Of a DNA stretch of 31,554 nt, positions 732 to 31,554 are shown in pieces. A program made the position numbers and the translations under genes. Numbering within the stretch: the stretch's first letter is position 1; every line of letters begins with the position of its first letter. Where the stretch lies: the UHGV virus genome UHGV-0071094; one strand, given 5' to 3'. This stretch comes from a virus. A model generated the notes under the pieces. The model was given only the letters and a program-made list of their open reading frames with translations, had not been told where the DNA came from and did not search any database.

Positions 732-749
732 AATATTAGGTAAAATAGA

Positions 750-8436: not shown

Positions 8437-8539
8437 TGATTCGGAATCATTTCTACCGTTGGCTGGGGTACATAAAAGCGTAATATTTTTATTCATTCTG
8501 ATAAAGCCAAGTCACATGGCTTGGCTTCAGATATATTGA

Positions 8540-9650: not shown

Positions 9651-11009
9651 ATGTTAATCAGATTCTCAGTCGAAAACTACAAGTCATTCAGAGATAGAGT
9701 CGAGTTTTCAATGGTTTCGAGTAAAGTTCGAAGCCATCCATCACATGTCGTTAAGGCAACTTCTGCGAACGATATAAGTGTGTTAAAAGTTGGAGTTATC
9801 TATGGAGCTAATGCTTCTGGTAAATCCAACATCATCAAAGCAATGAAACATGCTCAAAATATGATTTTGAAAGGAAGTAAAGCTGGTACTAACCTTCCCT
9901 ATGCACCTTTCAGGCTTGATGATGATTTTGAAAAGAAACCCAGCAGATTTGAATTTGAAATTAAAATCAATGGCAAGAACTATGCATATGGATTCTCAGC
10001 TGATCAAAAATCCATTAAAGAAGAGTGGTTGTATGAAATAAACAAGAAGGATGACATTCTTATTTATGAAAGAAGTAATACAACTCACTTTAAATTTGAA
10101 AACATAAAATTTAAAAATGAAGAAGACGAACAATTCCTAAACTTTACAGCAAGAGGAACAAGCGAAAACTCTTTGTTTTTGTACGAATGTTTTGATAGGA
10201 ATGTTCTGAAGGATTTGAATTACATTGTACCAATTTCTGATGTTTTTAAATGGTTTAAAGCTAAGTTACAAATAGTTTTCCCGAATTCTAAATATAGAGA
10301 CCTAGATTTTGGATCTGCTTCTGATGAAAAAGAAGGAGAGCTTATAACTGATATTCTAAAAGATTTTGATACCGGTGTGTCAAAGTTAGTATTAAGAAAA
10401 GTTAGTTCATTTGATGATATAAAACTTCCTCCCAATTTCAAGGACCAGATCATAGAGGATCTTAAATCTAGTAAGGCTGTTGTAATTTCAGGGCCAAGAA
10501 ATAAACGATATAAAGTTGAACTGGGTGAAGATGGAGAAATAACGGTATTTCAATTGATGACGGCCCATAAAGATAAAAATGGTGATGATGTATATTTTGA
10601 ACTCAACCAGGAATCAGATGGTACACAAAGACTTTTTGATATTATACCTGGATTAGTCGAACTTATGTTGAAAGACAAAGTTTATATAATTGATGAAATT
10701 GATCGTAGTTTGCATCCAAAGATTACAAAAACATTTATGAAATTATTCTCTATGAAAACTGTCGGTAAAGACAGTCAACTGATAGTCACCACTCATGAAA
10801 CCGGTCTTTTAGATTTTGAACTTATACGAAGAGATGAGGTTTGGTTTACTGAAAAAAATAAAAGTGGAATTTCGAGAATTTATTCACTCGAAGAATTCCA
10901 GCCTAGGTTTGATAAAGATATACGTAAAGGTTACTTAGTGGGGCGTTTTGGTGGAATTCCTAAAATAAAGAATATATTATCAAACGTTGAAGATTTTCAG
11001 AAGGACTAA
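9651..11009 (+). CDS. ABC/SMC-like AAA ATPase (OLD/AbiLi-like ATPase component)
   Basis: Walker A GANASGKSN; Walker B-like VYIIDEIDRSLH; GGAGAGG RBS before the ATG at 9651 (ORF track start 9624 is less likely); stop 2 bp before the next gene. Confidence 0.7.
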   Translation: MLIRFSVENYKSFRDRVEFSMVSSKVRSHPSHVVKATSANDISVLKVGVIYGANASGKSNIIKAMKHAQNMILKGSKAGTNLPYAPFRLDDDFEKKPSRFEFEIKINGKNYAYGFSADQKSIKEEWLYEINKKDDILIYERSNTTHFKFENIKFKNEEDEQFLNFTARGTSENSLFLYECFDRNVLKDLNYIVPISDVFKWFKAKLQIVFPNSKYRDLDFGSASDEKEGELITDILKDFDTGVSKLVLRKVSSFDDIKLPPNFKDQIIEDLKSSKAVVISGPRNKRYKVELGEDGEITVFQLMTAHKDKNGDDVYFELNQESDGTQRLFDIIPGLVELMLKDKVYIIDEIDRSLHPKITKTFMKLFSMKTVGKDSQLIVTTHETGLLDFELIRRDEVWFTEKNKSGISRIYSLEEFQPRFDKDIRKGYLVGRFGGIPKIKNILSNVEDFQKD

Positions 11010-11011
11010 AA

Positions 11012-11668
11012 ATGCCTCGTGAAAGAAGAGAGTTTGACAGAAGAAGTGGGGTAAAAGACCCGTCTTTAATTGTAATTGCTTGTGAAGGAGAGAAAACAGA
11101 GCAGGACTATTTCAATAGTATATCGGAACTATGTGATGAGTTAGGATCACGTTTACAACTTAAAGTTCTCCCGCCGCGAGAAGAGGGGCATAGTGCGCCT
11201 AGACATGTTTTAGACCAAATGGATAAATATAAAAAAGAATTTGGAATTAAAGTGAATGATGAATTATGTCTGGTAATCGATAGGGATAAACAATCATGGA
11301 CAGAGGCTACTATAAGTGAAGTTGCTCAGTTTTGTCATGCCAAACAATATATTCTGGCTTTAAGTAATCCATGTTTTGAATTATGGCTTCTTATACACCA
11401 TTATGATGTAATGCTCCTCGGTGAGGATGAAAAAAGAAGTATTTTAAGAAATAAAAATGGGTATATGAAAAGCAAACTACGGGATGTTATTGGACAATAT
11501 AACCCAAGTTCTATTAATATTCATGATTTCTGGGGGGTAACTGAAATCGCGATTGACAGAGCTAAACGTTTAGATGTTAATCCAGCTGAGAGATGGCCTA
11601 ATGAAATAGGAAGTCGTGTGTATATAATCATGGAGAAAATACGTCAGTCAATTAATAATCAATTATAA
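11012..11668 (+). CDS. RloB-like / Toprim-domain protein (putative nuclease partner of the ATPase)
   Basis: 218-aa ORF; N-terminal IVIACEGEKTE and downstream LVIDRDKQ give a Toprim-like E...DxD signature; translationally coupled to the ATPase gene. Confidence 0.6.
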   Translation: MPRERREFDRRSGVKDPSLIVIACEGEKTEQDYFNSISELCDELGSRLQLKVLPPREEGHSAPRHVLDQMDKYKKEFGIKVNDELCLVIDRDKQSWTEATISEVAQFCHAKQYILALSNPCFELWLLIHHYDVMLLGEDEKRSILRNKNGYMKSKLRDVIGQYNPSSINIHDFWGVTEIAIDRAKRLDVNPAERWPNEIGSRVYIIMEKIRQSINNQL

Positions 11669-12082
11669 TTATCCTATGTATTCCTTCGCATTTATTCCAT
11701 GCTTTAATAAGTGTATAAGGTTTTAGCTAAGTTGATTTTTTTATTGACTTGGCTTTTTTGTGTCTGGTTTGATGGTCTAGTTATGAGTGTAGGTATTTTT
11801 CGATTAAAGCGTATATCTTGATTTTTATATTAAGAATCATTCCTGATTTCTACTGAAGCCAAGAGAAAATTATTAATATATTTCATAGGATGATTTTGAA
11901 TTAGGATCTAAACAATAAGATATGGTTCACGTAAATTTATTTTGCTGGAGTGATAACTCGATTGGGTGTTTATTGAGGGGGGGCAAAAATATTGGTTTGA
12001 CATTATTATTACTACCTTTTTTTGTTTCTTTGCTCAGTGTTTACGTTGCTTTTTAGCGTGCAAAAAATAGAGAACTATTATA

Positions 12083-13345
12083 CTAATTCATTTTCTTTAT
12101 TCTCTGGGCGAATTCAAACGGTGTAATGTGTTCTTTTCTGTTGGCATTAAGGTAGTCAGCCCACCATTGTAACATGAGTTTTCTCTCTTCGAGATGTTCC
12201 GCTTTGTGGATATATGCTGCCCGAACCGAGTTACGCTCTTGGTGGCTCATTTGACGTTCTACGGCGTCTCTTGACCATAACCCAGATTCGATTAATGCAC
12301 TACAAGCCATAGTTCGAAAACCGTGACCACAAACTTCAGCTTTCGTGTCGTAACCCATGGTGCGAAGAGCCTTGTTAACAGTGTTTTCGCTGATTGGTTT
12401 GTCATCGCGACTAAAACCAATGAACATAAGATCCTTTTCTCCACTTATAGCTTGGAGCCTTTTAAATAATACTACAGCCTGCTTACTTAGCGGCACAAGA
12501 TGAGGGGTTTTCATTTTTGAGCCCCTATTTGAATACTTAACCCCCTCCAATTCTCGTCTTTCTGCAGGGATTGTCCATAAGGAGTTTTTGAAATTCACCT
12601 CAGACCAACGAGCGAATCTAAGTTCACTTGAACGGATGAAAGTCAGTAGAGTTAATTGAACTGCTATTTGAGTGATACCTTTCCCTTTATAGGCATCAAT
12701 CCGTTTGAGAAGCTCAGGAAGTCGTTCGAGGGGAAGGGCAGGGCGGTGATTACTCTTGGCAGTGGTTACAGCGCCTGCGAGGTCGTAAGCTGGGTTTTGG
12801 TCAATCAAAGCATTGTGAACAGCATACCGCATGATGGCAGTGATTCTTTGTTGTAAACGGGCAGCAAGTTCAAGATGTCCAGTTTCCTCTGCTTTTTTCA
12901 GAGGAACAAGTAAATCACGAGTTTTAAGCTCACTAATGTTCCGCTTACCGATAACAGGAAATACATGAGTGATCAGGCTGTTTAATACGGTAGTTCTGTG
13001 ACTGTCTGACCAGGTTCTGTTGCTTGAGTGCCAGTCTCTGGCAACAGTTTCAAAAATGAGTAAGCCTTTCTCTTCAATCTTTTCTGTTTTTCGCTTTTCG
13101 CCAGGGTCAACATTGTTGGCAATGAGTTGCCTTGCTTCTTCTCTTCTACGACGAGCTTCTGCTAAAGACACTTCGGGATAAACACCAAGCGCCAACATTT
13201 TTTGCTTACCAGAAAAGCGATATTGAAGCCGCCAGTATTTTGAACCCGTAGGGTGAACCAGGAGATGCATACCATCCCCATCTGTTAACTTGACGGGCTT
13301 TTCAGTAGGTTTCGCATTTCTGACTTTTACCTCAGTTAGTGCCAT
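12083..13345 (-). CDS. P4/CP4-57-type tyrosine integrase (Arm-DNA-binding DUF4102 plus catalytic domain)
   Basis: 420-aa ORF; N-terminus MALTEVKVRNAKP...KLTDGDGMHLLV...GSKYWRLQYRF typical of the P4-like integrase arm-binding domain; C-terminal HGFRTMA...AAY...LMLQWWADYL catalytic motifs. Sits at the AT-rich/GC-normal boundary. Confidence 0.9.
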   Translation of the reverse strand: MALTEVKVRNAKPTEKPVKLTDGDGMHLLVHPTGSKYWRLQYRFSGKQKMLALGVYPEVSLAEARRRREEARQLIANNVDPGEKRKTEKIEEKGLLIFETVARDWHSSNRTWSDSHRTTVLNSLITHVFPVIGKRNISELKTRDLLVPLKKAEETGHLELAARLQQRITAIMRYAVHNALIDQNPAYDLAGAVTTAKSNHRPALPLERLPELLKRIDAYKGKGITQIAVQLTLLTFIRSSELRFARWSEVNFKNSLWTIPAERRELEGVKYSNRGSKMKTPHLVPLSKQAVVLFKRLQAISGEKDLMFIGFSRDDKPISENTVNKALRTMGYDTKAEVCGHGFRTMACSALIESGLWSRDAVERQMSHQERNSVRAAYIHKAEHLEERKLMLQWWADYLNANRKEHITPFEFAQRIKKMN

Positions 13346-15550: not shown

Positions 15551-15651
15551 ATGATTGTTCTCAGAATGGACATGGCCCAAGGAAATAACGCTGATTTAAT
15601 ACTTCGACTCGGGACAAGTTAAGGCATACCCGCATTCCTTCGCGGTCACCA

Positions 15652-15810
15652 TTATGGCGATACCAGAGAGCTTTCTGCGTGTACATGCGTCTCTGTAACT
15701 TGCTCTCCTTCACTGTGGTTGCAAGTGACATGAATATCTCCTTCGTTACCGATTAATTCTTTCATCTGACGAATGAATTCTTCGTCTGACCAGTTATCTG
15801 TAAAACTCAT
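15652..15810 (-). CDS. Small phage protein (52 aa) in the Arf/early-left position
   Basis: Minus-strand ORF MSFTDNWSDEEFIRQMKELIGNEGDIHVTCNHSEGEQVTETHVHAESSLVSP; its ATG overlaps the stop of the upstream small gene (ATGA). Confidence 0.4.
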   Translation of the reverse strand: MSFTDNWSDEEFIRQMKELIGNEGDIHVTCNHSEGEQVTETHVHAESSLVSP

Positions 15811-15959
15811 TTCCTGCGATACCATGGAAGGTTGATAGCTAATTTCATCTCTTTATTTGCTTCAAGCCACATTTTGGAATCACCAATAAATCTGGCTATT
15901 ACTGCTTTGTTTTGTGCTGCTCGAAGCATCTGGTGATTGATGGCTATTTCATTGCGCAT
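15807..15959 (-). CDS. Kil-like small protein (50 aa)
   Basis: Minus-strand ORF MRNEIAINHQMLRAAQNKAVIARFIGDSKMWLEANKEMKLAINLPWYRRK; the ...RFIGDSKMW... segment resembles lambdoid Kil as recalled; assignment tentative. Confidence 0.35.
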   Translation of the reverse strand: MRNEIAINHQMLRAAQNKAVIARFIGDSKMWLEANKEMKLAINLPWYRRK

Positions 15960-16078
15960 AACGCCTCCAGTTGTTTCTTTGCTGCTCTGATTAATTGTTT
16001 AACTCGGCGTGATAATTCAGATTCGTGCGGGTAGAAAGCGGACATGACGCCGCTACCCGCGAGCTGAAAGTGCATCAT
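15944..16078 (-). CDS. cIII-like small protein (44 aa)
   Basis: Internal start of ORF 15944..16183 gives MMHFQLAGSGVMSAFYPHESELSRRVKQLIRAAKKQLEALCAMK, resembling lambda CIII (..AG....ESxL.R....L); AAGGAG RBS upstream. Confidence 0.4.
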   Translation of the reverse strand: MMHFQLAGSGVMSAFYPHESELSRRVKQLIRAAKKQLEALCAMK

Positions 16079-16619
16079 GGGTAACTCCTTATATTTGATT
16101 GCATAACGAAAACGCCTCGAGTGAAGCGTTATTGGTATGCGGTAAAGCCGATGGAAGAATGGTTTCTTCTCGCAGGTAAGCATGATGCTTGCTGTTCTGG
16201 AATACGGAATCGAAGACGATGAAATGGCTGAATTGACTAAGCGGCTTGCCGATTACCTGACAAAAGAAAAAGCCCCGAAGAACGGCGAATTCTTCGAGGC
16301 CTGATGTAGAAAGACTGGATCAATCCACAGGAGTAATTATGACAAAACGTCGTAAGAAATACCAGGAAAAAGAAGAGATTCGACACCCTGATTCACCTGA
16401 GGGATTAGTGGTAGCCGCAGCAAATAACAGGGCGTTCGCAGAGCGCCTTGTTGGTGTTTACAGACTAGCCAAAGCAGGAGTGAAACATGGGCGTCGTTAA
16501 GTTAGCTGATTACAGGCATATCCAAACCGTATGCCTGTTGGTAGTGGTAACCAGTTGGCGAAGTGGAACGGTTGGAATTACTTCCACCGAAAGGAACCTT
16601 GCGATAACGGGAGCGAATA

Positions 16620-18038
16620 ATGCCGATTCAGCAACTTCCGCTTATGAAAGGTGTCGGCAAAGACTTTCGAAACGCCGACTATATCGACTATCTGCCAGTG
16701 AATATGTTGGCTACACCCAAAGAAATACTCAACAGCAGCGGATATCTTCGTTCATTCCCGGGCATTGCCAAACGCTCTGATGTGAACGGTGCATCTCGCG
16801 GCGTCGAGTACAACATGGCGCAGAATGCTGTTTATCGTGTGTGTGGTGGCAAGCTGTACAAAGGAGAAAGTGAAGTCGGTGACGTTGCCGGAAGTGGTCG
16901 TGTATCAATGGCGCATGGTCGGACATCACAGGCAGTAGGCGTTAATGGTCAACTGGTCGAGTATCGCTATGATGGCACGGTTAAAACCGTCTCAAACTGG
17001 CCTACAGACAGCGGATTCACGCAGTATGAGTTAGGTTCAGTCCGCGACATTACGCGCTTACGTGGGCGTTATGCGTGGTCAAAAGACGGCACTGATTCAT
17101 GGTTTATCACTGACCTTGAAGACGAATCGCATCCTGACCGCTACAGCGCACAATATCGTGCTGAGTCTCAGCCTGACGGCATCATCGGCATCGGAACATG
17201 GCGAGACTTCATCGTCTGCTTTGGTTCATCGACGATTGAATATTTCTCCCTGACTGGCGCAACAACTGTTGGTGCTGCTTTGTATGTCGCACAGCCATCA
17301 CTGATGGTGCAGAAAGGCATTGCCGGAACTTACTGCAAAACGCCATTCGCTGATTCGTATGCGTTTATCAGCAATCCGGCAACGGGTGCGCCGTCTGTAT
17401 ACATCATCGGATCCGGTCAGGTGTCACCAATCGCCAGCGCGAGCATTGAGAAAATTCTCCGCTCCTACACTGCTGATGAACTGGCTGATGGTGTGATGGA
17501 GTCTCTGCGATTTGATGCGCATGAGCTGCTGATTATCCATCTTCCGCGCCATGTTCTGGTGTACGACGCATCTTCAAGCGCCAATGGTCCGCAATGGTGT
17601 GTACTGAAAACAGGCCTGTATGACGATGTGTATCGCGCTATCGACTTCATTTACGAAGGCAATCAGATAACGTGCGGCGATAAGCTGGAATCCGTGACCG
17701 GGAAATTGCAATTCGATATCAGCAGCCAGTACGACAAGCAACAGGAACATCTGCTGTTTACTCCACTCTTCAAAGCAGATAACGCCAGAGTTTTCGACCT
17801 TGAGGTTGAATCGTCAACTGGCGTTGCGCAGTACGCTGACCGCCTGTTCCTCTCTGCAACCACTGACGGCATCAATTACGGGCGTGAGCAGATGATTGAG
17901 CAGAATGAACCGTTCGTTTACGACAAACGCGTTTTGTGGAAGAAAGTAGGGCGCATCAGGAAAAACATTGGCTTCAAATTGCGCGTTATCACTAAGTCAC
18001 CTGTCACTCTGTCTGGCTGCCAGATAAGGATTGAGTAA
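16620..18038 (+). CDS. P22 gp10-like tail/head-completion protein
   Basis: 472-aa ORF; same length as P22 gp10 and N-terminus [46 protein letters not shown] closely resembles it. Confidence 0.85.
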
Positions 18039-18886
18039 TGGCTGATTCGAATCTTAATGTGCCGGTAATCATTCAGGCTACACGACTCGACACATCAGTC
18101 CTTCCGCGTAATATCTTCTCGCAGTCGTATCTGCTTTACGTTATCGCACAGGGAACTGATGTTGGTAACGTGGCTAACAAAGCCAACGAGGCCGGACAGG
18201 GCGCTTATGATGCACAGGTCAGGAACGATGAGCAGGATGTGATTCTCGCTGACCATGAGCAGCGAATTTCTGCTGCGGAAGCAACGCTTGTTAATCATGA
18301 GGAGCGAATCAGCCAGGCAGAATCAACTCTTCAGGAACATGAAACGCGAATCGCTCAGAATGAAAGCGATATTGCGTCGCTTGATACCAGAGTTCAGTCG
18401 CTGGAATCGCAGGTTTCAGACCATGAATCGCGCATTGATGCTCTGGAGTATGCCACTACTCGCAAGAAGTCAGAGGTTGTTTACTCTGGCGTATCAGTAA
18501 CCATTCCGACAGCGCCGACCAACCTTGTTAGCCTGCTGAAAACGCTCACGCCGTCATCAGGATCGTTGGCACCATTCTTCGACACCGTTAACAACAAGAT
18601 GGTTGTGTTCAACGAGAACAAAACCTTGTTCTTCAAGCTGTCGATCGTCGGGACGTGGCCCAGCGGAACCGCCAACAGGTCAATGCAGCTAACATTTTCC
18701 GGTTCTGTTCCTGACACACTGGTAAGCAGTCGCAACTCGGCGACAACAACCGACAACATCCTGTTAGCTACGTTCTTCAGCGTGGATAAAGACGGCTTTC
18801 TTGCCACAAATGGCAGTACGTTAACCATTCAGTCAAATGGTGCGGCGTTTACTGCCACAACCATCAAGATAATCGCGGAGCAGTGA
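18038..18886 (+). CDS. Tail needle protein (gp26-like) with C-terminal knob, Sf6-type
   Basis: ATG overlaps the gp10 stop (TAATG); N-terminus [36 protein letters not shown] conserved with P22 gp26; heptad-like coiled-coil middle; 282 aa with a ~130-aa C-terminal extension, as in Sf6-type needles. Confidence 0.8.
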
Positions 18887-19341
18887 TGATTCAGTTCAAA
18901 CAAACGCGAAACATCGACCTGATCGAAGCAGTCGGAAATCACCCTGACATTATCGCCGGTAGCAACAACGGTGATGGATACGACTACAAGCCTGAATGCC
19001 GTTACTTTGAGGTTAACGTGCACGGTCAGTTTGGCGGCATTGTTTACTATCAGGAAATTCAGCCGCTTACATTCGATTGCCACGCCATGTACCTGCCAGA
19101 GGTTCGCGGCTTCAGCAAGGAAATCGGGATGGCGTTCTGGCAATACATTCTGACTAACACCACCGTTCAGTGCGTCACATCGTTCGCCGCACGCAAATTC
19201 CGCCACGGGCAGATTTACTGCGCAATGATTGGCCTTAAGCGTGTCGGAACCATCAAGAAATACTTCAAAGGCGTGGATGACGTGACTTTTTACAGCGCCA
19301 CACGCGAAGAACTAATCGACTTCCTGAATCACGGGAGATAG
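18883..19341 (+). CDS. P22 gp14-like virion assembly protein
   Basis: 152-aa ORF in the conserved position between the needle and gp7 genes; overlapping start/stop. Confidence 0.65.
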
Positions 19342-19343
19342 CC

Positions 19344-20036
19344 ATGTTATATGCATTTAAGCTGGGCAGAAAACTGCGCGGCGAGGAACCTTGGTGCCCT
19401 GAAAAAGGCGGGAAAGGTGGTAGCTCTGATAAAAGCGCAAAGTATGCAGCAGAAGCCCAGAAGTATGCCGCAGACCTGCAAAATCAGCAGTGGCAGACGA
19501 TCATGAAAAACCTTGCTCCGTTCACGCCTCTTGCGGAGCAGTATGTTAACCAGCTTCAGAACCTTTCCAGTTTAGAAGGTCAGGGGCAGGCACTTAATCA
19601 GTATTACAACTCTCAGCAGTATAAAGACCTTGCAGGTCAGGCTCGTTACCAGAGTCTTGCTGCTGCGGAGGCTACGGGAGGACTTGGTTCGACAGCCACA
19701 AGCAATCAACTGGCTACGATCGCGCCGACTCTCGGTCAGTCGTGGTTATCAAACCAGATGAGCAATTACAACAATCTGGCAAACGTTGGGCTTGGTGCTC
19801 TGCAAGGTCAGGCAAACGCCGGGCAGACGTACGCCAACAACATGAGCAGCATTGCACAGCAAAGCGCAGCTCTTGCCGCTGCTAATGCCAACAAACCATC
19901 AAGTCTTCAGACAGCAATTAGTGGCGGAACGTCTGGTGCGATTGCCGGTGCAGGTCTTGCCAGCCTTTTGGGAACATCAACACCTTGGGGCGCTGGCATT
20001 GGTGCTGGTATCGGATTGCTTGGCTCGTTGTTTTAA
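19344..20036 (+). CDS. Ejection protein, P22 gp7-like
   Basis: 230-aa ORF, Gln/Ala/Gly-rich with a glycine-rich hydrophobic C-terminus; gene order and size match P22 gene 7. Confidence 0.75.
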   Translation: MLYAFKLGRKLRGEEPWCPEKGGKGGSSDKSAKYAAEAQKYAADLQNQQWQTIMKNLAPFTPLAEQYVNQLQNLSSLEGQGQALNQYYNSQQYKDLAGQARYQSLAAAEATGGLGSTATSNQLATIAPTLGQSWLSNQMSNYNNLANVGLGALQGQANAGQTYANNMSSIAQQSAALAAANANKPSSLQTAISGGTSGAIAGAGLASLLGTSTPWGAGIGAGIGLLGSLF

Positions 20037-20045
20037 GGGGTAATC

Positions 20046-21452
20046 ATGGCTACTTGGCAAGGATCAAATGGCGGATTGTTGGCTGGTATCGGCGGCGTCA
20101 ACTCAAACGCTCCGAGCGTAAATGACATCGGCAACACGCTTCAGCTTATCAGGCAGAACAATGATATTGAGCGTTCAGGCGCTAACAATGTTGGGCTGAC
20201 AGCTTTGCAAGGTCTTTCTGGTATTGCGGGTGTTTTTCAGCAGGAAAAGCAGGCTCAGCGGCAGAAAGAATTTCAGCAGGCATACGCTAATGCTTATGCG
20301 TCTGGTGATCGCGGTGCTTTGCGTCAGTTGGCTACTCAATATCCAGACCAGATTGAATCTGTTCGTAAAGGCATGGGATTCATTGATGAAGACCAGCGCA
20401 ATTCTATCGGCACCTTAGCGGCTGGCGCCCGCCTTGCATCATCGTCTCCAGAAGCAATGCAATCATGGCTGCAAAACAACGCCAAGGAACTGACTCGCGT
20501 CGGTGTTGACCCTAATAACGTTGCTCAGATGTATCAGCAGAACCCTTCAGGATTTGGTGAGTTTGTTGATCACCTTGGAATGGCTGCTCTTGGTCCGATT
20601 GATTACTTCAATGTTCAGGACAAGATGGCTGGTCGTGAGATTGATCGCGGAAAACTTGCAGAGACAATCCGCAGCAATCAGGCTGGAGAAGCACTTCAGG
20701 CGAGAGGGCAAAACCTTTCCTATCAGTCAGCAATGACTGGGCACAATATCGCAGCACAACGCTTGGCTCTGGATCAGCAAGAGTTCGGGTTTAAGATGCA
20801 GCAAGCGCAGGAAAAGGCTCAGCAGTTGATTAGCGAAGCACCTAAGCTGTCAGTAAACATGGAAAAAGGCATCGAGACGGCTGTAAACAATGCTACAGCA
20901 TCATCAAACTCAGCCAATTCTATGAGTGCGCTTGCTCAACAGTTCAGAGCAGAAAAACCAACGACAGGTTTGTTCGGTAACGCACAGAACATGTTCGCAA
21001 AACTTACCGGAAGCGATACAACATTGCGTGATTTGCGCATCCGCCAAAATGCCCTTGTTAACAGTCAGGTTCTTAAATTCCTACCTCCAGGCCCCGCAAC
21101 GGATAAAGACGTTGAGATCGTTCGGCAGGGGGCACCAACTGACATGGATAACCCTGAGACGGTCGCAAGATGGCTTGATGCAATGGCAAACCTTGAGCGA
21201 CGAAACGCGCAGTTTAATGAGTTTAAAGCCGAGTGGATGAGCGCGAATGGCAATCCAGGACAATCGCGTAATGGCGGTCAGATATTGGGGTTGGATGTTA
21301 AAAAAGGTGAATCATTGGGGAGTGCCGTTAAGCGGTATATGTCAATGAATACTGACGCAGCGCCAGCACAAGATTCGACACCTTCAGGAGAACCACGGAA
21401 TCAGGTTGGATCATATACCTCAAAATCAGGCATTCAATTTACGGTGGAATGA
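20046..21452 (+). CDS. Ejection protein, P22 gp20-like
   Basis: 468-aa ORF in conserved synteny (7-20-16); compositional similarity to P22 gp20. Confidence 0.75.
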
Positions 21453-23290
21453 TGAAAGTAACTGCAAACGGTAAGACATTTACCTTTCCTGATGGTACGA
21501 GCACCGAAGATATTGGCAACGCCATTGATGAGTATTATGCTGGTCAGGCTGTTCAGCAACAAACAGTTAATCAGGCCAATAATGCACCAACACGGGAAGA
21601 ACCATCATTGATCCAACAAGCTGGCGATTGGCTCACTGGTGGTCAAAGTGCAGGGCAAATTGCAGAACAGGCTGGTCGTGGTCTGGTAAACATACCATTT
21701 GACGTATTGCAGGGCGGCGCAAGTCTGATTAATGCAATCAGTCAGGGGCTTGGTGGACCCAAGGTTTTGGATGATGTTTATCGTCCAGTAGACAGACCGA
21801 CAGACCCCTACGCGCAAGCCGGTGAAACAATTGGTGGGTATTTAGTTCCAGGAGTTGGAACGGCAGGAAGCATGGCTATTGGATCACTGGCAGAGGCCGC
21901 AAATCAGAAAGGCGATTTCGCACAAAATGCAGCTAAAAATGCCGGAGTTAACCTTGCCACTCAGGGTGTTCTTTCCGCAGCAGCAAAGGGAATAGGGCGT
22001 GGAATAACGGCTATAAAAGGTGATATTGCGCCAGAAGTGGCGAAGAAAATTGCCACATCAGAATCGATGGGCGTGACACCAATGACATCTGATGTTATCC
22101 CGCCGAAAAATGCTTTCACTCGCGGCCTAACTCAGGATGCCGAGGGGGCTTTGCTCGGGACAGGCTCAAAGCGAGCGGAGCAATATGCAACGCGTAGTAA
22201 GCTGGTAAGTAATTATTTTGACCGTTTTGGTGAGTACAACCCTGATGATGTGGTGAAATCTCTTACCACCACGTTAAGGGGGCGGAAGGATGCCGCTGGC
22301 GCTGTTATCAATGACGTCACCAATAAAATGGGTAATGCCGCAGTTGATACCACAAATACCATGAATGCTCTGAATACAGCGATCGCAAGACAGGAACGGC
22401 TTGGGACGTCTGCCAATCAAAGCCTGCTTACATCCTTGCGTAACCTACGTGAAGAATTAGCAAACCCTGCAACTGATTTGGATGTTACGTTTGATCTCTT
22501 GCGTCAGCACAGAACAGCATTTAGATCTAATGTTCAGGGAGATGCTATGGTCTTCCCCAACCAGGCAAAAGCAGCTACCAATATGGTAGAGAATGCAATG
22601 TCAAAAGACCTTCGTAACGCAGTTGCTAAAAACCTCGGTGCATCAGACGCAGCAAAATACCTTAAAGCAAATTCCGATTATGCAAACGTTTATAATAAGG
22701 TGCTTAATAAAAACATTGCTAACAAGCTCAACAAGGCAAGCAGTGAAGCCAGTCCTGAACTTATAAATACCGTTGTATTAAGCAGAAAACCATCTGACGT
22801 GAAACGAATATGGAGCGCCCTGGATGATAAAGGGAAAGATGCTATGCGTGCAGCTTACGTCAGCAAAATAGCGGAAAAGGCCGGTGACTCTCCAGCCAAG
22901 TTCATCACTGAAGTTAATAAGCTGAAATCTCAGTCAGGCGGTGAAATTTACAACACTATTTTTTCTGGAAAGCACATGAAAGAGCTTGATGCTCTTCATG
23001 AAGTTCTACAGCAAACAGCAAGGTCAGACACCGCAAATGTAGTAACTCAGACGGGGCAATCACAAGCCAACAGGATAAGGACGATTGGCGCAACTGCGAC
23101 TCTTGGTGTATCAATGGGGCTTGAGGCTGGCTTTGGTGCAATGATGCGTTTGTATGAGTCCAAAGCAGCAAGGAATGCTCTCTTACGTCTGGCAAACACT
23201 AAAGCTGGAACGCCAGCCTATGAAAGAGCGTTGAGTAACGCTGCAAATGCCATCAGGCCGCTGCTTGCTACTGAGGCAACACAGCAGTAA
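21449..23290 (+). CDS. Ejection protein, P22 gp16-like
   Basis: 613-aa ORF; N-terminus [16 protein letters not shown] and size fit P22 gp16; overlaps the gp20 stop. Confidence 0.75.
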
Positions 23291-23314
23291 CGTATGGGGA
23301 ATTGGATTCAATCG

Positions 23315-23704
23315 TTAACATTTTCTTTTTACTTTTCCAACAAAAGCTTTGGTTGAATCCATATTCCCATAACCAGAAATGGTTTTCGACATTAAAACTG
23401 TTCCATTAGGATGTATTACCCATGAGTCGATAACTCGTTGAGTTTCGCCATTCGCGCCGATTCCAATGATGGAGTTTTTAGACAATGCTTTGTAAGCCAT
23501 GCCGCCCGCATCCGTCCCAGAATATGTGATACTGGCATCTTCACCGTTTGTCTTAATGATGAATGTTCCACTAAAACCATCTTCTTCCGGTTGAAAATTA
23601 TTTCGTTCTGAATAGCTTATTCCGTGCATATCTCCAACGACCCAGCACTCTGCTGAGACAGAAAACGAGAAGACAAGGAAAGCCATTGCTATAATCAATT
23701 TCAT
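23315..23704 (-). CDS. Hypothetical secreted protein (129 aa), moron in the sieA position
   Basis: N-terminal signal peptide MKLIIAMAFLVFSFSVSA; no recognised domain; same strand as and downstream of mnt. Confidence 0.55.
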   Translation of the reverse strand: MKLIIAMAFLVFSFSVSAECWVVGDMHGISYSERNNFQPEEDGFSGTFIIKTNGEDASITYSGTDAGGMAYKALSKNSIIGIGANGETQRVIDSWVIHPNGTVLMSKTISGYGNMDSTKAFVGKVKRKC

Positions 23705-23719
23705 TTTAAGCCCTTATTG

Positions 23720-24055
23720 TTATTGATTCTTTTTGCACGGAAATGTTTTTCCTACTGCTAGGGCGGTTAGTATAACTGCACTCTCATTTCTTGATTCTGG
23801 GTTTTTGTTTAGATATTTCTCAACGATATCGGTGTATTGATACATGTCAACGCCATCAGGAGGACATAGAGAACCAATTAGTATCAATGAGTCAGTTACT
23901 CCGCGCAAATATCCAGTAATGTAAAGCGATGAAAAATCATCACCCTTTTTACCTTGTTGAATGTTGTAAAGAAGGTCATTACCCGTTTGAAGCTCGCGCA
24001 GCTCAGCACTGGAAGAAGAGACAACTGCTAACAAGAACAGTGATAGAAATCTCAT
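23720..24055 (-). CDS. Hypothetical secreted protein (111 aa), moron co-transcribed with mnt
   Basis: Signal peptide MRFLSLFLLAVVSSSSA; two Cys (possible disulfide); start overlaps the mnt stop. Confidence 0.55.
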   Translation of the reverse strand: MRFLSLFLLAVVSSSSAELRELQTGNDLLYNIQQGKKGDDFSSLYITGYLRGVTDSLILIGSLCPPDGVDMYQYTDIVEKYLNKNPESRNESAVILTALAVGKTFPCKKNQ

Positions 24056-24306
24056 TTCAAATCCTTTTCATAAATCTTTTTAAGTGTCTCAAACACTATA
24101 GCCTTGAACTGCTCAGCCTGCTGATCAGCCAAGCGTTCAGCTTCGTCGCGATATCCTGTAATCGGTGATGGTTTTGATAGTGCATCCTGAACGATTTGTA
24201 ATAACTCAGAGTTCATTGACCTTCCGTTAGCCTCGGCTCTTAATTTCAATTTTTCTCTTACTTCCAAAGGCATACGGAAGTTAAAGTGCGGATCATCTCT
24301 AGCCAT
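24052..24306 (-). CDS. mnt: Mnt repressor (Arc/MetJ ribbon-helix-helix family)
   Basis: 84-aa ORF MARDDPHFNFRMP.EVREKLK.RAEANGRSMNSELLQIVQDALSKPSP.TGYR closely resembles P22 Mnt; divergent from arc, with operators between. Confidence 0.85.
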   Translation of the reverse strand: MARDDPHFNFRMPLEVREKLKLRAEANGRSMNSELLQIVQDALSKPSPITGYRDEAERLADQQAEQFKAIVFETLKKIYEKDLK

Positions 24307-24328
24307 GCCATCACTCCAAGTTAGTGTA

Positions 24329-24380
24329 TTGACATGATAGAAGCACTCTACTATATTCTCAATAGGTCCACCGTGGACCT
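24329..24380. promoter_or_regulatory. immI control region: Pant-like promoter with Arc operator and Mnt operator
   Basis: TTGACA (24329-24334) and TATATT (24352-24357) with 17-bp spacing; the 21-bp ATGATAGAAGCACTCTACTAT (24334-24354) matches the P22 arc operator as recalled; the 17-bp palindrome AGGTCCACCGTGGACCT (24364-24380) matches the Mnt operator. Confidence 0.7.
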
Positions 24381-24396
24381 ATATTGTGAGGTGAAC

Positions 24397-24558
24397 ATGA
24401 AAGGAATGAGCAAAATGCCACAGTTCAATTTGCGGTGGCCTAAAGAAGTATTGGATTTGGTACGCAAGGTGGCGGAAGAAAATGGTCGGTCTGTTAATTC
24501 TGAGATTTATCAGCGAGTAATGGAAAGCTTTAAGAAGGAAGGGCGCATTGGTGCGTAA
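24397..24558 (+). CDS. arc: Arc repressor
   Basis: Internal start of ORF 24334..24558 gives a 53-aa protein MKGMSKMPQFNLRWP.EVLDLVRKVAEENGRSVNSEIYQRVMESFKKEGRIGA resembling P22 Arc; GAGGTGA RBS. Confidence 0.85.
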   Translation: MKGMSKMPQFNLRWPKEVLDLVRKVAEENGRSVNSEIYQRVMESFKKEGRIGA

Positions 24559-24626
24559 AGTTGAAGCCCCAACTGCTGTAACAGTCAGGGCTTCGGCATC
24601 AACAAATCGGATTAGGAAATATTGAC

Positions 24627-25505
24627 ATGAAAAGTATAGCAAAGGCACAAAACGATTTCACCATCTTCAAATTCGGCGACAGTGAAATCCGCGTCATCAA
24701 CAAGTGCGGTGAGCCGTGGTTTGTAGCTAAAGATGTTTGTGATGCTTTAGATTTGACTAACTCACGCAAGGCGCTTACTGCACTTGATGACGATGAAAAG
24801 GGAGTAACTTTAAGTTACACCCTTGGTGGTGAGCAGAATCTAAGCATTGTGAGCGAATCAGGTATGTATACATTGGTTCTGCGCTGCCGCGATGCAGTCA
24901 ATAAAGGTTCAGTCCCGCACAAATTCCGCAAGTGGGTAACAGCAGAAGTTCTGCCTTCAATTCGCAAACATGGCGAGTATGTAAAAGGAAAGAAAACCAC
25001 TGTTGAGGAAAGAACACCGCTACGCGATGCAGTAAACATGCTGGTAGGAAAGAAAGGACTTCGCTATGACGATGCATACAATATGGTTCATCAGCGTTTT
25101 GGTATTGACAGCATTGATGAACTTTCAATTGAACAAATCCCGCTGGCCGTAGAGTACATCCACAGGGTAGTGCTTGAAGGTGAGTTCATTGGCAAACAAG
25201 AGAAGAAAACCAACGAGCTTTCTGCAAAAGAAGCAAACAGCCTTGTATGGTTATGGGATTATGCCAACCGCTCACAGGCATTATTCCGCGAACTGTATCC
25301 GGCGCTAAAACAAATTCAATCGAACTATTCCGGCAGATGCTACGACTACGGTCATGAATTCTCGTATGTTATCGGAATGGCGAGAGACGTTTTAATAAAC
25401 CACACACGAGATGTTGATATTAATGAGCCAGACGGACCAACGAATCTTTCCGCATGGATGAGACTTAAGAATAAAGAATTGCCTCATTCAGTACATAACT
25501 ACTGA
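24627..25505 (+). CDS. ant: Antirepressor Ant (Bro-N plus Ant C-terminal domain)
   Basis: 292-aa ORF downstream of arc; N-terminal ...[28 protein letters not shown]... is Bro-N/KilA-N-like; position and size as P22 ant. Confidence 0.8.
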
Positions 25506-25521
25506 CAGATAACCAACGCAA

Positions 25522-25548
25522 CGACCCAGCTTCGGCTGGGTTTTTTTA
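25522..25548 (+). terminator. Rho-independent terminator after ant
   Basis: ACCCAGC-TTCG-GCTGGGT hairpin followed by TTTTTTTAT. Confidence 0.55.
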
Positions 25549-25605
25549 TGCCCAAAATTCACCGTAGCTACGCTGCGGCGATTCCTTGTATCTGGAGCAA
25601 ATTAA

Positions 25606-27567
25606 ATGACAGACATTACAGCCAATGTGATCGTATCGATGCCTTCGCAACTCTTCACTATGGCTCGTTCTTTTAAAGCTGTAGCCAATGGCAAAATTTA
25701 TATCGGAAAAATTGACACTGACCCGGTAAATCCAGAAAACCAGATTCAGGTTTATGTAGAGAATGAAGACGGCTCTCACGTTCCTGTTTCACAACCAATC
25801 ATCATTAACGCTGCCGGATATCCGGTATATAACGGACAGATTGCCAAGTTCGTAACTGTGCAAGGCCACTCTATGGCTGTTTATGATGCGTACGGTGCGC
25901 AGCAGTTCTATTTTCCGAATGTGCTGAAGTACGACCCTGATCAATTGGAGCAAAGATTGTCTTCGCCGGATGGAGCCAGTGACATTGGTGTTCAGCCAAG
26001 GGGGAATCTTGCACAGACAATTCTATTTGTAACCCCTGAGCAGTTCGGTGCTATTGGCGATGGGATAGCCCATCCATTATCTGAGCGCTATGCGACCCTT
26101 GCCGCAGCGCAGGCCGTGTATCCTTTCGTGACATCTCTGACGCAGACCATCGACTGGGCTGCATGCCAGGCGGCTGAGAACTATGCGCGAGGTAAAACAG
26201 CGGTAAGATGCCCTTTCTACGCCAAGTATCATCTTGGCAACAACTACCTAAAACTAGGTGAAAAAGCAAAATGGTATGGCAATGATATGCCTAGCCTGGA
26301 CCGTGATTGCACCATGTTTATCAGGGAGGGTAGCTCAGGTGGATTTGGGCAAGATTGTATTGTTAGGGTGGCAACAGCTGCAGAAGTAGGCAGCTCTGAT
26401 GAATTCGTCCGCGGCATAGTATTCAAAGGGTTCCGTCTCACAAGGAATCGCCCAAGAAGGTATAACAGTAAATATGACAGTACGATAGGGTTCCACGCCG
26501 ACCACGCGCTCGGATTGCAAGTAAATATCAGCGTTAACGGATGCGAATATGGCTTCCTTGGTTATGTATGCTGGAATGTTTCAGGGACGGTAAGGTTTGA
26601 TTCTTGCCATAAAAGCCTTTGGTTAGACCCAGCTACGGCTACCCCTGAATACACTCCAGTAGCAGGTGCTGTAATGACGGCTGTTAACCTGAGGGTAGAG
26701 GTCGATGCTTGCGTTTATGGGCCAGTTGTTCGTCGAGCAAAATACGGCAAATTATCAGGATGGGTTGAAGGAATGCTCATTAACCCAACCGTATACCCTA
26801 TTTATGACACTGGAAACGAAACTGCTATTGCACTTACCACGTATAACTGTGACAGCTTTGATGTTACAGAGCTTGGTATAGAAGCCTGGCAGGGCGCCCA
26901 TGTCTATAACTATGGTGGAAGCATATCTGTCAACTTAAGTTGGACTCAGGATTATTACCTGACAAACACAACTGGTAAGCATGGTCCTTACCATGCAATG
27001 TCAGTTCTTATGGGCAATTCTGAGCTGTTTACTCTACCAGCAACAGCTAATGCCCAATATTATAATTTAAATGTTGGTTGCCTTGTAATTCGCAATCTCA
27101 GCGGAGACTGGAGTAATACAACTAATTTCGGCAGCGTATACTTTGCCACGACAGATGCGACATCTCGTACTGTGTTCGAGAACTCTCATGTGTACTTTGG
27201 CAGTAACGTAGCACGATTTGCCCCTGGATTCCTGGGTAATTTCGACACGGTTGGCGGGAGATATATCATCGACGCCATAACCCCAAATGGATATACAAAG
27301 GTAGGCCCTAACTATTTTGTTAAAACATCATGGGGATTAAAGGCGATAAACGGAGGAGATGGAAGGGTATCTATCACCGTTGGCACAGACACACCAACAA
27401 ATCTCAAGTTGCATGACGTGTCTGCATACGTCATTACAAGCACAACATCTCAACCCCTCCCAATAGCTGTAGTGTCGACATCAGATACTGAAATTTCTTT
27501 CCAGACAGCAGTAACTACAACAGCATTCAGCATCAACTGGAAAGCTTACGTAAGCTGGTCTGCTTGA
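25606..27567 (+). CDS. Tailspike protein with P22-type N-terminal head-binding domain and divergent receptor-binding domain
   Basis: 653-aa ORF; first ~115 aa ([11 protein letters not shown]...[35 protein letters not shown]...[24 protein letters not shown]) match the conserved P22 gp9 N-terminus; the remainder is unrelated to P22 gp9 as recalled. Confidence 0.85.
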
Positions 27568-27598
27568 AAAAAGCCCCTAATGGGGCTTTCCTTTTAAG
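27567..27598. terminator. Bidirectional terminator-like hairpin between tailspike and gtr operon
   Basis: AGCCCC-TAAT-GGGGCT stem-loop flanked by A-run and T-run; overlaps the last codons of the converging minus-strand gene. Confidence 0.5.
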
Positions 27599-28911
27599 AT
27601 ATAAACCAAAGATGATATTGACAAGAATACGACCATATCAAAAGAGAATGATAGTCCAAACAGATGCTTTGATAGATCCCGGTAACCTTCTCCTATAAAT
27701 GATATGTAAAATTGAGAAATACCAAAAAGAGAAACTAGAACCACCGGAACGGACATACTCCTTGTCTTTCTGCTAACGAGAAACGCTACCATTATCAAAA
27801 TCATGACAAACATACGAAGGTTTCCGAAAAATCTATCTTTAAGATGCGTCAACTGAGTTGACCATGTGATTCTGTCGTCGACTATGACCTTTATAGTCTT
27901 TGCTACATGAATATAATCAGTTACCAGATTATCTTTCACTACATCATCAAAAGGGAGCATAAAAATGATACTTGGATGCTTGATGTATTCACGTACAGAA
28001 TCAATAAAACTTACGTTCTTATTGTTTTCATAGCATGACTTACCAAGCGTAGAGCGATGCGATCCTTTTTCCTTGTCTAACTGCCCACCCCAAGCATCAA
28101 TTCCAATGCACTTTTCATCAACCCCGCCTGGAAGATCTATATCATTCATCTTTTCGTAAGCGTAAACTCCGTAGTAGGCAGAGTGATACTTATTGAAATT
28201 AGTGGCGTCAGATGAATTCATTACAAAAATAACACATGCAACCTGAGAAATGGCAAGGCCAGCTAAAGCTAATTTCCTGTAGTTGTAAAAATAGAACACA
28301 AATGGCATTGACAGCAACGGTATGTAAAAAAATTGACTTTTGCTCCCGCCGATAACAAAAGCAGATATCACAAACAGTGTGGTGGTAAGTAATGTGTTTT
28401 CCCTTCTTACAAGGCACATAGCCATTAATGGAAGGAAGACCAACACAACCTGCTCCTGGTAAAATGAAGGGAAGAATGCAATGTTAGATGAGGAGCACAA
28501 GAAAATAATCAATATTAATGCAATAGCATAATCCACATATGATATATGCCCTCTATGCAACTTAACATACAGAGAGAAAAGAATTGCAATATAAATCGAC
28601 TTTAATGCTGCTGATAAGATTCTAGCATCAAGTTGGTCTGTAAATAATTTAAAAATACCACCTATAAAGTACAGGATATAAGAGTATGTGCTCATGTAAG
28701 TAAACTTACTAATTCCCCAAAACTCATCATAAAGATGATACTTTAGGTCCATGCTATGCTGGAATGACGGTATTGGCGGCATGAATGGGAATATTGCGCG
28801 ATGGAAATCACCCGTGTTAATCATGTACACGTTTTTTGTAGTAGCAATGACAATTATTGAAAATACAATTAAAATCCATGCTTCTAAACGGACACCAAGA
28901 AATCTATTCAT
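27577..28911 (-). CDS. Type-specific O-antigen glucosyltransferase (GtrC/GtrS-like polytopic membrane protein)
   Basis: 444-aa highly hydrophobic ORF directly downstream of and overlapping gtrB; conserved third position of gtr clusters. Confidence 0.75.
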
Positions 28912-29834
28912 TTCAAATCCCTGTTTTTCTTCAGAATAAATCTTGGACGCTGCTTGGACTCAACATATATCCTGCCAATGTACTCACCAAGAACGCCAAT
29001 GCCAATCAATTGAACCCCGCCAAGGAACAGAATAGAGACAAGCAGGGATGGATATCCACGCACAGCATTGCCGAAGGCCAGTGTGTCGATAATCATCCAA
29101 GCACCGTACAGAAACGCCACTCCAGCTACGAACAGGCCAATGTAAGTCCACATGCGCAACGGGAAAGTAGAGAAGCTTGTGATCCCCTCAAGTGCCAGGT
29201 TCCACAGTTTCCATCCATTAAATTTAGTACTGCCTGCCACTCGTTCTGCGCGTGCATACTCGACAACATCTGTGCGACCGCCAACCCAACTCAGCACACC
29301 TTTCATAAAAAGGTTGCGCTCTGGCATAAGCTTAATGTTTTCGACAACTTCACGGCTCATTAACCGGAAATCGCCGACATTCTCCTCGATCTTTGGGTTG
29401 CTTATTTTGTTGTGCAATTTATAAAACCACTCTGCCGTTTTGCGTTTCAGTCGTCCGTCAGTTGAGCGATCAGTTCGCTTAGCCAGCACCATATCAGAGC
29501 CTGCCTGCCACTTTTCAATCAGATGAGGAATAACCTCAATCGGGTCTTGCAGGTCAACATCAATAGGAATAACGGCATCACCTGTTGCATGGTCTAACCC
29601 TGCAAACAATGCTGGTTCTTTACCAAAGTTTCGTGTAAATGACAGCGGAACAATTAGAGGATCTGAAACGGACAGAGCGTTAATGATTGACTCCGTAGCG
29701 TCTTTGCTACCATCATTTATAAAAACAATTTCCACTTCATATGGCTTCAACTCTTCGAATTCACGTACCGTTTTATAAAAAATTGGTATCGCTTCCTCTT
29801 CATTGAAGACAGGAACGACCAGAGATATCTTCAT
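28908..29834 (-). CDS. gtrB: Bactoprenol glucosyltransferase GtrB (GT2 family)
   Basis: 308-aa [19 protein letters not shown]...FINDGSKD...DVDLQDP... (GT-A DxD), C-terminal transmembrane helices; overlaps gtrA and the type-specific gene. Confidence 0.85.
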
Positions 29835-30193
29835 TTCGCATCCCTAAATACAATGAACTTTGAATAGACGAAACCGCACACCAGGCTGATGGCGGAGAAT
29901 GTAACAAGAGTGACAATTGGAGGAAGTGAACATCTATCAGCAGCCCATCCAACAGTAGCGCTCAGTGTTCCCATGAACCCGACATATAACATGTAGCGCA
30001 TCGTTGTAGTCGTTGCCTTGAATGTGAATTTTGCATTCGCGAAGAAGCTAAAGCTCACAGCCACAACGAAACCTGCGAAGTTTGCAAGAGCCTGGTTTGT
30101 ATGCGCTGCATAGATACATACACCAAAAACCACCCAGTGTATAAGTGTGTTTAGCACACCAATCGAGGTGTACTTTGCAAATAGCTTTAACAT
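29831..30193 (-). CDS. gtrA: GtrA-family flippase-like small membrane protein
   Basis: 120-aa ORF with four hydrophobic segments, immediately upstream of gtrB. Confidence 0.8.
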
Positions 30194-30346
30194 TTCTTCT
30201 ATCAGCTAATAATCAAAGGCATGAAGTCTATCATCCAAGTCTCAATCGATCGATGACTTGCTGTGGTTGATGAAACAAAACTTAGACACACAAGGCTTTG
30301 AGCCTTGTTGCAAGGCTTTGTGATATTCGATAGTTGTTAAGGCGGA

Positions 30347-31504
30347 TCACTCCACCTTTTCATCAATCCAGTCCGCCCACCATTGCATCATTTCTCTGCG
30401 CTTATCGAGATACTGAGCATGGTTGTAAATCCCGCGCACAGATCCGCCGTTGGCATGTGCCAGTTGCACTTCAATGGCGTCGGCAGGCCATTCGTGCTCG
30501 TTCATAATCGTGCTGAATTCATGCCTGAATCCGTGACCGCTTTCCAGACCCTCATAGCCGATTCGTTTGATCACAAGTAATACCGCGTTCTCGCAGATTG
30601 GCTTCTTCTTATCGTTACGCCCGGCAAAAACAAACTCTGATACTGGTTTGGTGATGGAGCTTAACGTAGTGAGAAGTTCAACCACCTGGTCCGACATCGG
30701 GACCACATGAATCTTGCGTCCCTTCATCACACTGGCGTCGATAGTGATAATCCTGTTTTCAAAATCGACGTTATTCCATAGCATAGAACGAAGCTCTTTC
30801 GTTCTTAGGGCTGTGTAGCGTAAAACTTTGGTCGCAATGAGCGATACGATACTACCTGAAAATGTTGCCAGTGCTTTATTGAATGCCGGGATCTGGTCTG
30901 CAGGAAGAAACGGGAAGTTCTTCTTGCGGTATCCCTTCATGGCGTCAGCAAGGTCAGGTGCCGGGTTATATTTAGCCCTGCCGGTGACAATAGCGTAACG
31001 GAAAACCTCGCCGCATCTTCTGCGTGCTTTGTTGGCTCGCTCCATTGCACCGCGATCTTCAAATCTGCGGATTACTTCCAGCAGTTGCATCGGCTCAATA
31101 TCCTGAATTTCAAGGCCGCCGATGATAGGTAAAATGTCGTCATCAAACATTTTTGCAAGTTCAGTTGCATAGCCTACTGACCAGACTTGCTTCTTGTGCT
31201 CGTACCATTCCTTGTAAATCGCACTAAAGGAATTGTTGTTAGACGAAGCCTTTTTCGCTTTTACCGGATCGATGCCAACCGAGATGTCTTTCCTCGCAGT
31301 CCATGCTTTATCCCTTGCCTCCTGCAAAGTCATAAGCGGATATTTTCCGACGGTCAGGATTTTCTCCTTACCGTCAATCTTGTAGCGAAGCTGCCATACC
31401 TTTTTCCCGGATACAGGGACATAAAGGTACAGGCCATTACCATCGAGAAGTCGGTATGGTTTTTCTTTCGGCTTTGCTGCTTCAATCTGCTTAACGGTGA
31501 GCAT
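30347..31504 (-). CDS. intS: Prophage tyrosine integrase (IntS/KplE1-like, P4-type)
   Basis: 385-aa from the ATG at 31504 (the ORF track extends to a GTG at 31540); DUF4102-like N-terminus and C-terminal HGFRH...LAH...Y...MMQWWADW motifs; followed by gtrA-gtrB-gtr(type) as in the argW-intS-gtrABS locus of E. coli K-12 as recalled. Confidence 0.85.
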   Translation of the reverse strand: MLTVKQIEAAKPKEKPYRLLDGNGLYLYVPVSGKKVWQLRYKIDGKEKILTVGKYPLMTLQEARDKAWTARKDISVGIDPVKAKKASSNNNSFSAIYKEWYEHKKQVWSVGYATELAKMFDDDILPIIGGLEIQDIEPMQLLEVIRRFEDRGAMERANKARRRCGEVFRYAIVTGRAKYNPAPDLADAMKGYRKKNFPFLPADQIPAFNKALATFSGSIVSLIATKVLRYTALRTKELRSMLWNNVDFENRIITIDASVMKGRKIHVVPMSDQVVELLTTLSSITKPVSEFVFAGRNDKKKPICENAVLLVIKRIGYEGLESGHGFRHEFSTIMNEHEWPADAIEVQLAHANGGSVRGIYNHAQYLDKRREMMQWWADWIDEKVE

Positions 31505-31554
31505 GGGTAAAAATCCGGTGGGTAAAATTATTTTATCCACTTTTTACCCGTCAT

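Follow-up and report, generated by a model that had tools for sequence, protein, structure and literature searches.

Phages of the P22 group ordinarily carry genes that alter the bacterial surface directly behind the tailspike gene; P22 itself has gtrABC in this slot, and other surface-modifying genes occupy it in Sf6 (oac), HK620 and CUS-3 (neuO). In BTP1, a P22-like prophage of Salmonella, GtrC is reported to shield the O-antigen against the phage's own spike and to prevent superinfection; it is described as working independently of GtrA and GtrB, and the gtr system as showing no phase variation in its expression (Kintz et al. 2015, PMC4413052). GtrIV of phage SfIV, annotated in its record as a serotype-specific glucosyltransferase, lies directly downstream of gtrA-gtrB, and its membrane topology was mapped by Nair et al. 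(2011, PMC3259042). Here we analyze the spike-gtr end of a P22-like, Sf6-type, argW-integrating prophage remnant of E. coli contained in the virus genome UHGV-0071094, a stretch of 31,554 nucleotides (hereafter, the window). We consider it likely, with a probability of roughly 80%, that this locus is the receptor end of the prophage, pairing a mosaic spike directed at the O-antigen with a convergent gtrABC operon that modifies the same O-antigen. By analogy, BTP1 would be the best functional model for it. The interpretation advanced in an earlier note on this DNA is thereby supported, with qualifications concerning the fold of the spike, the defective state of the prophage and the identity of the target.

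In sequence, the spike is a mosaic: its head-binding domain is of the P22 type, and its receptor-binding part is foreign. The earlier note had proposed a conserved P22-type N-terminal capsid-binding domain of about 115 residues, and this is borne out by a match to PF09008 over residues 1–113 and by BLASTP identities of 91% to Sf6 gp14 and 76% to P22 gp9 (residues 1–113), 83% to HK620 gp9 (residues 1–143) and 77% to the CUS-3 spike (residues 1–168). In an alignment of spike N-termini, the P22-like sequence stops at YDPDQ. The neck displays the L..L-s..Ga..iG pattern common to spikes with PF18668 adaptors, and the per-residue confidence score of the structural model (pLDDT) is low there. All 14 single-nucleotide polymorphisms (SNPs) relative to the copy in E. 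coli GPEC1405 fall inside the head-binding domain, at 25680–25869.

Comparison with the spikes of HK620, Sf6 and CUS-3, which the earlier note had recommended, confines the similarity to this N-terminal part. The remaining ∼540 residues gave no significant BLASTP match to the P22, Sf6, HK620 or CUS-3 spikes (best E 0.12–0.5), and in a sequence search of the PDB the P22-type chains (P22 and Sf6) match only about residues 1–115. Assignment of this region to the P22 gp9 endorhamnosidase type was rejected (best BLASTP E of 0.12 beyond residue 113). The remainder is 77% identical over 544 residues to the spike of the lytic Kagunavirus ZCEC5 and 86% identical to that of a Hafnia alvei prophage, and it belongs to a large receptor-binding family found attached to no fewer than three kinds of N-terminal anchor (PF09008, PF18668 and PF03906). 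An AlphaFold (AF2) monomer model of residues 110–653, built with 73 homologues (pLDDT 92), predicts a right-handed parallel beta-helix of the same class as other tailspikes. The best Foldseek matches are the Pseudomonas phi297 and LKA1 tailspikes (E ∼5e-11) and Acinetobacter AS12, followed by Sf6 and HK620, all at no more than 15% identity and with template-modeling (TM) scores of ∼0.4, which points to the usual fold class without a close solved relative. Thus, the claim that the last ∼540 residues are unrelated to the P22 receptor-binding domain holds for the sequence but not for the modeled fold.

All four genes (tailspike, gtrC, gtrB and gtrA) are intact and lie where the earlier note had placed them, with gtrA-gtrB and a 444-residue type-specific transferase forming an intact operon convergent with the spike. 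GtrA (PF04138, E 1.7e-13) and GtrB (PF00535, E 5e-31) are close to known bactoprenol glucosyltransferase systems, GtrB being of glycosyltransferase family 2 (GT2). The gtrA and gtrB DNA is 84–90% identical to the cassettes of phages HF4s, SfIV, SfV, SfII and SfI, which supports glucose as the carried sugar. The third gene product is not a P22-type GtrC, an assignment we rejected (E 0.2); it belongs to the GtrIV/YfdI family. GtrC itself gave no match in the copy of Pfam that was searched, and its family name comes from the NCBIfam model WsfD (NF051875; 98.7 bits against a cutoff of 80, residues 15–432) and from homologues with precomputed Pfam matches to PF27133 (YfdI_N). Aligned over 97% of its length, it shares 36% identity with SfIV GtrIV, and this low value suggests that the acceptor sugar and linkage probably differ. 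GtrC is modeled as a polytopic membrane protein of the glycosyltransferase C (GT-C) fold, with a conserved acidic residue past the first membrane helix; Asp35, immediately behind that helix, is invariant.

The gene shows no sign of the disruption that the earlier note had named as a possible objection: GtrC aligns end to end with 444-residue homologues, keeps all 27 residues that are invariant among 56 family members, and is encoded by alleles that are 100% identical in three complete E. coli genomes. The GC content of gtrC (34–40%) is low relative to its neighbors. The apparent lack of gtrA in three contigs, where the gene calls are missing, was also discarded, as gtrA is intact there.

Four-nucleotide overlaps join the gtrA stop to the gtrB start and likewise gtrB to gtrC, fitting a single operon in which gtrC is last and is followed by a terminator. 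The spike and gtrC converge with a gap of 9 bp, and a hairpin spans this gap and the final gtrC codons. An automatic terminator scan had missed the hairpin, which was read directly from the sequence and then folded; its predicted folding energies are −18.3 (+ strand) and −15.7 (− strand) kcal/mol (z = −4.3 and −3.2), with none of 200 shuffles as good. The hairpin core is kept in Hafnia, E. coli and Pantoea loci, and P22 has annotated terminators at the matching places, between spike and gtrC and behind ant. Upstream of the spike lie mnt, arc, the sar antisense RNA, ant and the ant terminator; sar (Rfam RF00262, 65.6 bits) maps to 24559–24625 on the minus strand, between arc and ant as in P22. 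The order ant-tailspike-terminator-gtrCBA-int matches P22 exactly, and P22 shares the orientation of these genes as well as closely related GtrA (80% identical) and GtrB (88% identical), whereas neither its receptor-binding part nor its GtrC is related in sequence to the one described here. The literature that we searched contained no description of this tailspike/transferase pairing. Coordinates are collected in Table 1.

Table 1. Features at the spike-gtr end of the prophage, in window coordinates.
Feature	Coordinates	Strand	Description or basis
Terminator 3' of the antirepressor gene, 5' of the spike	25523-25542	+	terminator scan
Tailspike	25606-27567	+	653 residues; open reading frame (ORF) list
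P22-type head-binding (virion adaptor) domain, tailspike codons 1-113	25606-25944	+	Pfam Head_binding PF09008, E 4.9e-67
Tailspike neck/linker, about residues 114-141, adaptor/receptor-binding junction	25945-26028	+	alignment of spike N-termini
Receptor-binding part: predicted cap, right-handed beta-helix, C-terminal beta domain	26029-27567	+	homology and AF2 model
Bidirectional hairpin terminator between spike and gtrC	27568-27597	both strands	sequence AAAAAAGCCCCTAATGGGGCTTTCCTTTT; overlaps gtrC stop codon
gtrC-like gene	27577-28911	-	444 residues; predicted type-specific GT-C-fold glucosyltransferase, YfdI/GtrIV family
gtrB	28908-29834	-	308 residues; predicted GT2 bactoprenol glucosyltransferase
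gtrA	29831-30193	-	120 residues; small membrane protein, proposed undecaprenyl-phosphate-glucose flippase
gtrA-int spacer, presumed gtr promoter region	30194-30346	-	153 bp
Tyrosine integrase, IntS/Sf6 type, argW target	30347-31540	-	397 residues; PF00589, PF22022, PF13356

The relationship between the spike and gtrC extends beyond P22-like phages. Positions 26029–30195 of the window correspond to one 4182-nucleotide match, 79% identical, to a prophage of Hafnia alvei (CP036514) that differs in genus and chromosomal site, in its PF18668 spike adaptor, and in neighboring tail genes of a long-tailed type, while its GtrC is 87% identical to that of the window. Nucleotide identity is absent in the adaptor region, reaches 79–87% in the first part of the helix, falls to 67–71% at 26858–27307, is best conserved (83–92%) across the spike C-terminus, the terminator and all of gtrC, and drops to 64–73% in gtrB and gtrA. 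The receptor-binding part, terminator and gtrC constitute one homologous block that the window has in common with this non-P22 prophage. The closest gtrBA (96% nucleotide identity) occurs in other E. coli, in a match that starts at the gtrB/gtrC boundary. Together with the Hafnia identity profile and the position of the GPEC1405 SNPs in the adaptor, this indicates that the locus is built from at least four modules, namely the adaptor, the receptor-binding part with gtrC, gtrBA, and int.

Among loci with a GtrC of 63% or higher identity to that of the window, all 11 (from E. coli, Yersinia, Hafnia, Pantoea and one metagenome) have a member of the spike family next to gtrC and convergent with it, though in Yersinia only as a 3' remnant; the 27 loci with a GtrC of 42% identity or less all lack it. 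It is tempting to regard the receptor-binding part and gtrC as a single co-inherited cassette, a key plus lock-changer, that moves between virion types (P22-like podovirus and long-tailed prophages) and among Escherichia, Hafnia, Pantoea and Yersinia, with the spike half diversifying faster than the transferase half. We hold this view tentatively and rate its chances at somewhat under even. In Yersinia kristensenii (loci L012–L014), gtrABC, with a GtrC 65% identical to that of the window, is followed by only a 3' fragment of the spike gene amid P2-like D/ogr remnants and an insertion sequence (IS) element, so that here too the gtr end has outlived its phage.

The same linkage bears on the possibility that the receptor-binding part targets another polysaccharide, such as capsule, colanic acid or enterobacterial common antigen, and that its adjacency to gtr is a legacy of the P22 layout. 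The homologous ZCEC5 protein is annotated as a "63D sialidase" spike, the family resides on several adaptor types in many genera, and the tailspike survey of Pas et al. (2023) found some spike subtypes across many serogroups, with the ZCEC5 subtype unassigned. We nevertheless consider this unlikely. One GtrC clade accompanies the receptor-binding part in five genera and behind two kinds of adaptor, the junction being conserved; BLASTP found nothing significant against the corresponding part of the CUS-3 endosialidase spike; and among the top structural matches are the Sf6 and HK620 tailspikes, which were solved with O-antigen or oligosaccharide fragments.

Under the preferred reading, an O-antigen spike with a modifier of the same O-antigen, the head-binding domain (residues 1–113) would dock the spike trimer onto the tail, and the last ∼510 residues would be a beta-helix module that recombination introduced from a reservoir common to Kagunavirus and siphovirus-like prophages. 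Its most likely role is to bind, and probably also to cleave, the O-antigen of the host. GtrB would make undecaprenyl-phosphate-glucose, GtrA would bring it across to the periplasmic side, and GtrC, with its GT-C fold, would attach the glucose to a particular sugar of the O-unit. The outcome in the lysogen would be serotype conversion together with protection from adsorption or cleavage by the phage's own spike. The identity and intactness of the genes, the boundaries of the mosaic, the modeled folds and the conserved linkage come directly from the analysis; we infer that the O-antigen is the receptor, glucose the added sugar and masking the purpose, with O29 as the prospective target serogroup.

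Masking could also be the wrong description of what GtrC does: the enzyme might create a glucosylated form that the spike needs, or it might glycosylate a different acceptor. The direction of a functional link cannot be read from sequence, the matched NCBIfam model takes its name from WsfD, described in general terms as a "glycan biosynthesis hexose transferase", and complete E. coli genomes carry, at ∼2.46 Mb, a gtrC from this family (38% identical) that has no member of the spike family as a neighbor. This is very improbable in our judgment, given that a phage needing its own modification could not infect naive hosts and that the BTP1 gtr system is reported to protect the lysogen from its own phage (PMC4413052); a preprint on P22 SieA likewise counts gtrABC among the prophage-expressed systems that interfere with superinfection.

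The O29 lead stems from the hosts. All three complete E. coli genomes that carry this gtrC (GPEC1405, YZB902 and HE302) also carry O29 wzx/wzy, while O29 wzy occurs in 11 of 5426 complete genomes. The O29 cluster includes genes for a CDP-glycerol glycerophosphotransferase and for L-FucNAc, and the O29 O-unit has a two-residue side branch according to a review. For both the recognized O-antigen and the glucosylated sugar, the O29 hosts are the sole lead.

Several observations weigh against the preferred reading. The three O29 strains share the same IS elements beside gnd and so probably represent one lineage and one acquisition, which makes the O29 association a lead rather than a statistic. 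Among sequenced phages, ZCEC5 has the spike closest to the receptor-binding part, and this phage was isolated and grown on O157:H7 rather than on O29; the paper describing it gives no host-range or spike data. In the survey of Pas et al. (2023), its spike constitutes subtype X19, to which no specificity is assigned and for which no horizontal-transfer partner is recorded, and O29 is not among the assigned serogroups. Of the two features for which the earlier note had recommended structure prediction of the C-terminal domain, the beta-helix was modeled, but catalytic residues were not identified. A simple sigma-70 scan found no promoter in the gtrA-int spacer. An exclusive pairing of this spike family with this GtrC family was rejected, as the O29 strain EC2 carries a 49% identical spike beside a P22-GtrC-like gene. 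Finally, when mapped on Sf6, the prophage in the window lacks the repressor region (immC) and the replication, nin/Q and lysis genes, and also terminase, portal, scaffold, coat and gp4.

The EC2 locus (L052; NZ_CP058571.1, 3583414–3588117) is a second P22-like remnant, located near the bio operon. Its transferase is 476 residues long, and its gtrAB is the closest relative (96% nucleotide identity) of that in the window.

The prophage in the window is defective. Homology to Sf6 begins at 13522, the Sf6 attP core, and continues with scraps of early-left genes up to 15961 and a cII fragment at 16182–16523, followed by a jump to a gp10 homologue at 16615. With the head, lysis, replication and immunity genes gone, the spike records a past receptor and serves no working virion here: it cannot be built into particles by this element alone, but the gtr genes can continue to serve the host. 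Positions 15606–31554 are 100% identical to a JGI metagenome contig that runs into the E. coli genes next to argW, and E. coli GPEC1405 harbors what looks like a complete prophage containing the same spike and gtr genes.

There is about an even chance that the spike is a non-functional passenger of a decaying element, in which only gtrABC, and perhaps int, has been kept for bacterial benefit through phage resistance or antigenic change. Besides the extensive gene loss, at least four deletion variants (window/L056, L057, L060 and YZB902/HE302) all retain gtrCBA-int with 0–1 SNP. The IS3 element present in YZB902 and HE302 has cost these remnants all that precedes the last third of the spike, leaving gtrCBA 100% identical. 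On the other hand, the spike ORF is full length and identical in most variants, and GPEC1405 carries the same spike in its apparently complete prophage. Across metagenome and draft-genome contigs, the retained spike-gtr end differs by 0–1 SNP, and the YZB902/HE302 remnants are 100% identical; with hardly any SNPs, the decay must be recent, and retention need not mean selection. Passenger status would in any case add to the proposed pairing of an O-antigen spike with its modifier rather than displace it.

Integration and control of the cassette also set this locus apart from P22. The int gene is 96% identical in nucleotide sequence to that of Sf6 and adjoins tRNA-Arg (argW) in genomes. An attP between gtrA and int, as in P22, was considered and rejected: the Sf6 attP core lies at 13522, and int abuts argW, because integration here is of the Sf6/argW type. 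The four-GATC arrangement of the P22 gtr regulatory region underlies Dam/OxyR phase variation. The gtrA-int spacer contains a single GATC compared with four in the P22 region, and the P22-style paired arrangement of four GATC sites is absent upstream of gtrA in a search that covered GATC sites only. Within the spacer, a repeated motif, CAAAGCCTTG, together with an inverted repeat, occupies 30255–30340 on the minus strand. The stretch resembles that of P22 between attP and the gtr promoter, ATGCAAAGCCTTGCAAACCGATGCAAAGATTTGTATGTC, and the repeats may serve as an arm site for a recombinase or as a binding site for a regulator.

Other elements surround the spike-gtr end. At 23315–24055 on the minus strand, the slot of P22 sieA holds two small ORFs, one of 111 residues that matches Rap1a (PF18602, "Rap1a immunity proteins", E 1e-14) and one of 129 residues with a hydrophobic N-terminus and no family match; in GPEC1405, this slot contains different genes, including a P63C-domain gene interrupted by IS5. 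A separate integrative island (window 1–13345) abuts the prophage attL. It encodes a P4-type tyrosine integrase (12083–13345), a large serine recombinase (4636–6192), two ParB/RepB-like proteins (2857–4646), a DUF6119 protein (750–2357) and a peptidoglycan-binding-domain protein (18–731), as well as a two-gene AbiL abortive-infection system at 9624–11668 identified by PADLOC (AbiLi, 461 residues, E 3e-91; AbiLii, 218 residues, E 3e-23). The island and the prophage together look like a tandem integration at the argW attachment site.

SfIV GtrIV, of the same family as GtrC and in the same position behind gtrA-gtrB, has IS elements and tail-fibre assembly genes as neighbors and no adjacent P22-type spike. 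ZCEC5, a lytic phage of the Guernseyvirinae, carries its related spike behind a different N-terminal anchor, with no gtr genes nearby. BTP1 GtrC is reported to need neither GtrA nor GtrB (PMC4413052), whereas GtrC here is modeled with a GT-C fold and has an intact gtrAB adjacent.

The practical value of these results is modest, and the understanding of such systems is unchanged. The window offers a candidate O29-associated tailspike, accompanied by prophage gtr genes that may modify this antigen, and it supplies a horizontal-transfer partner for the ZCEC5 spike subtype X19. The deletion variants show prophage decay in which the O-antigen-modifying end survives, and the locus provides a clean example of a receptor-binding part travelling with the modifier gene of its presumed receptor across phage types and genera. 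If the receptor-binding part and gtrC are indeed inherited as one cassette, then gtrC clades could predict spike specificity, and vice versa, and the ZCEC5-type spike subtype would point to an O29-like, glycerol-phosphate-containing O-antigen.

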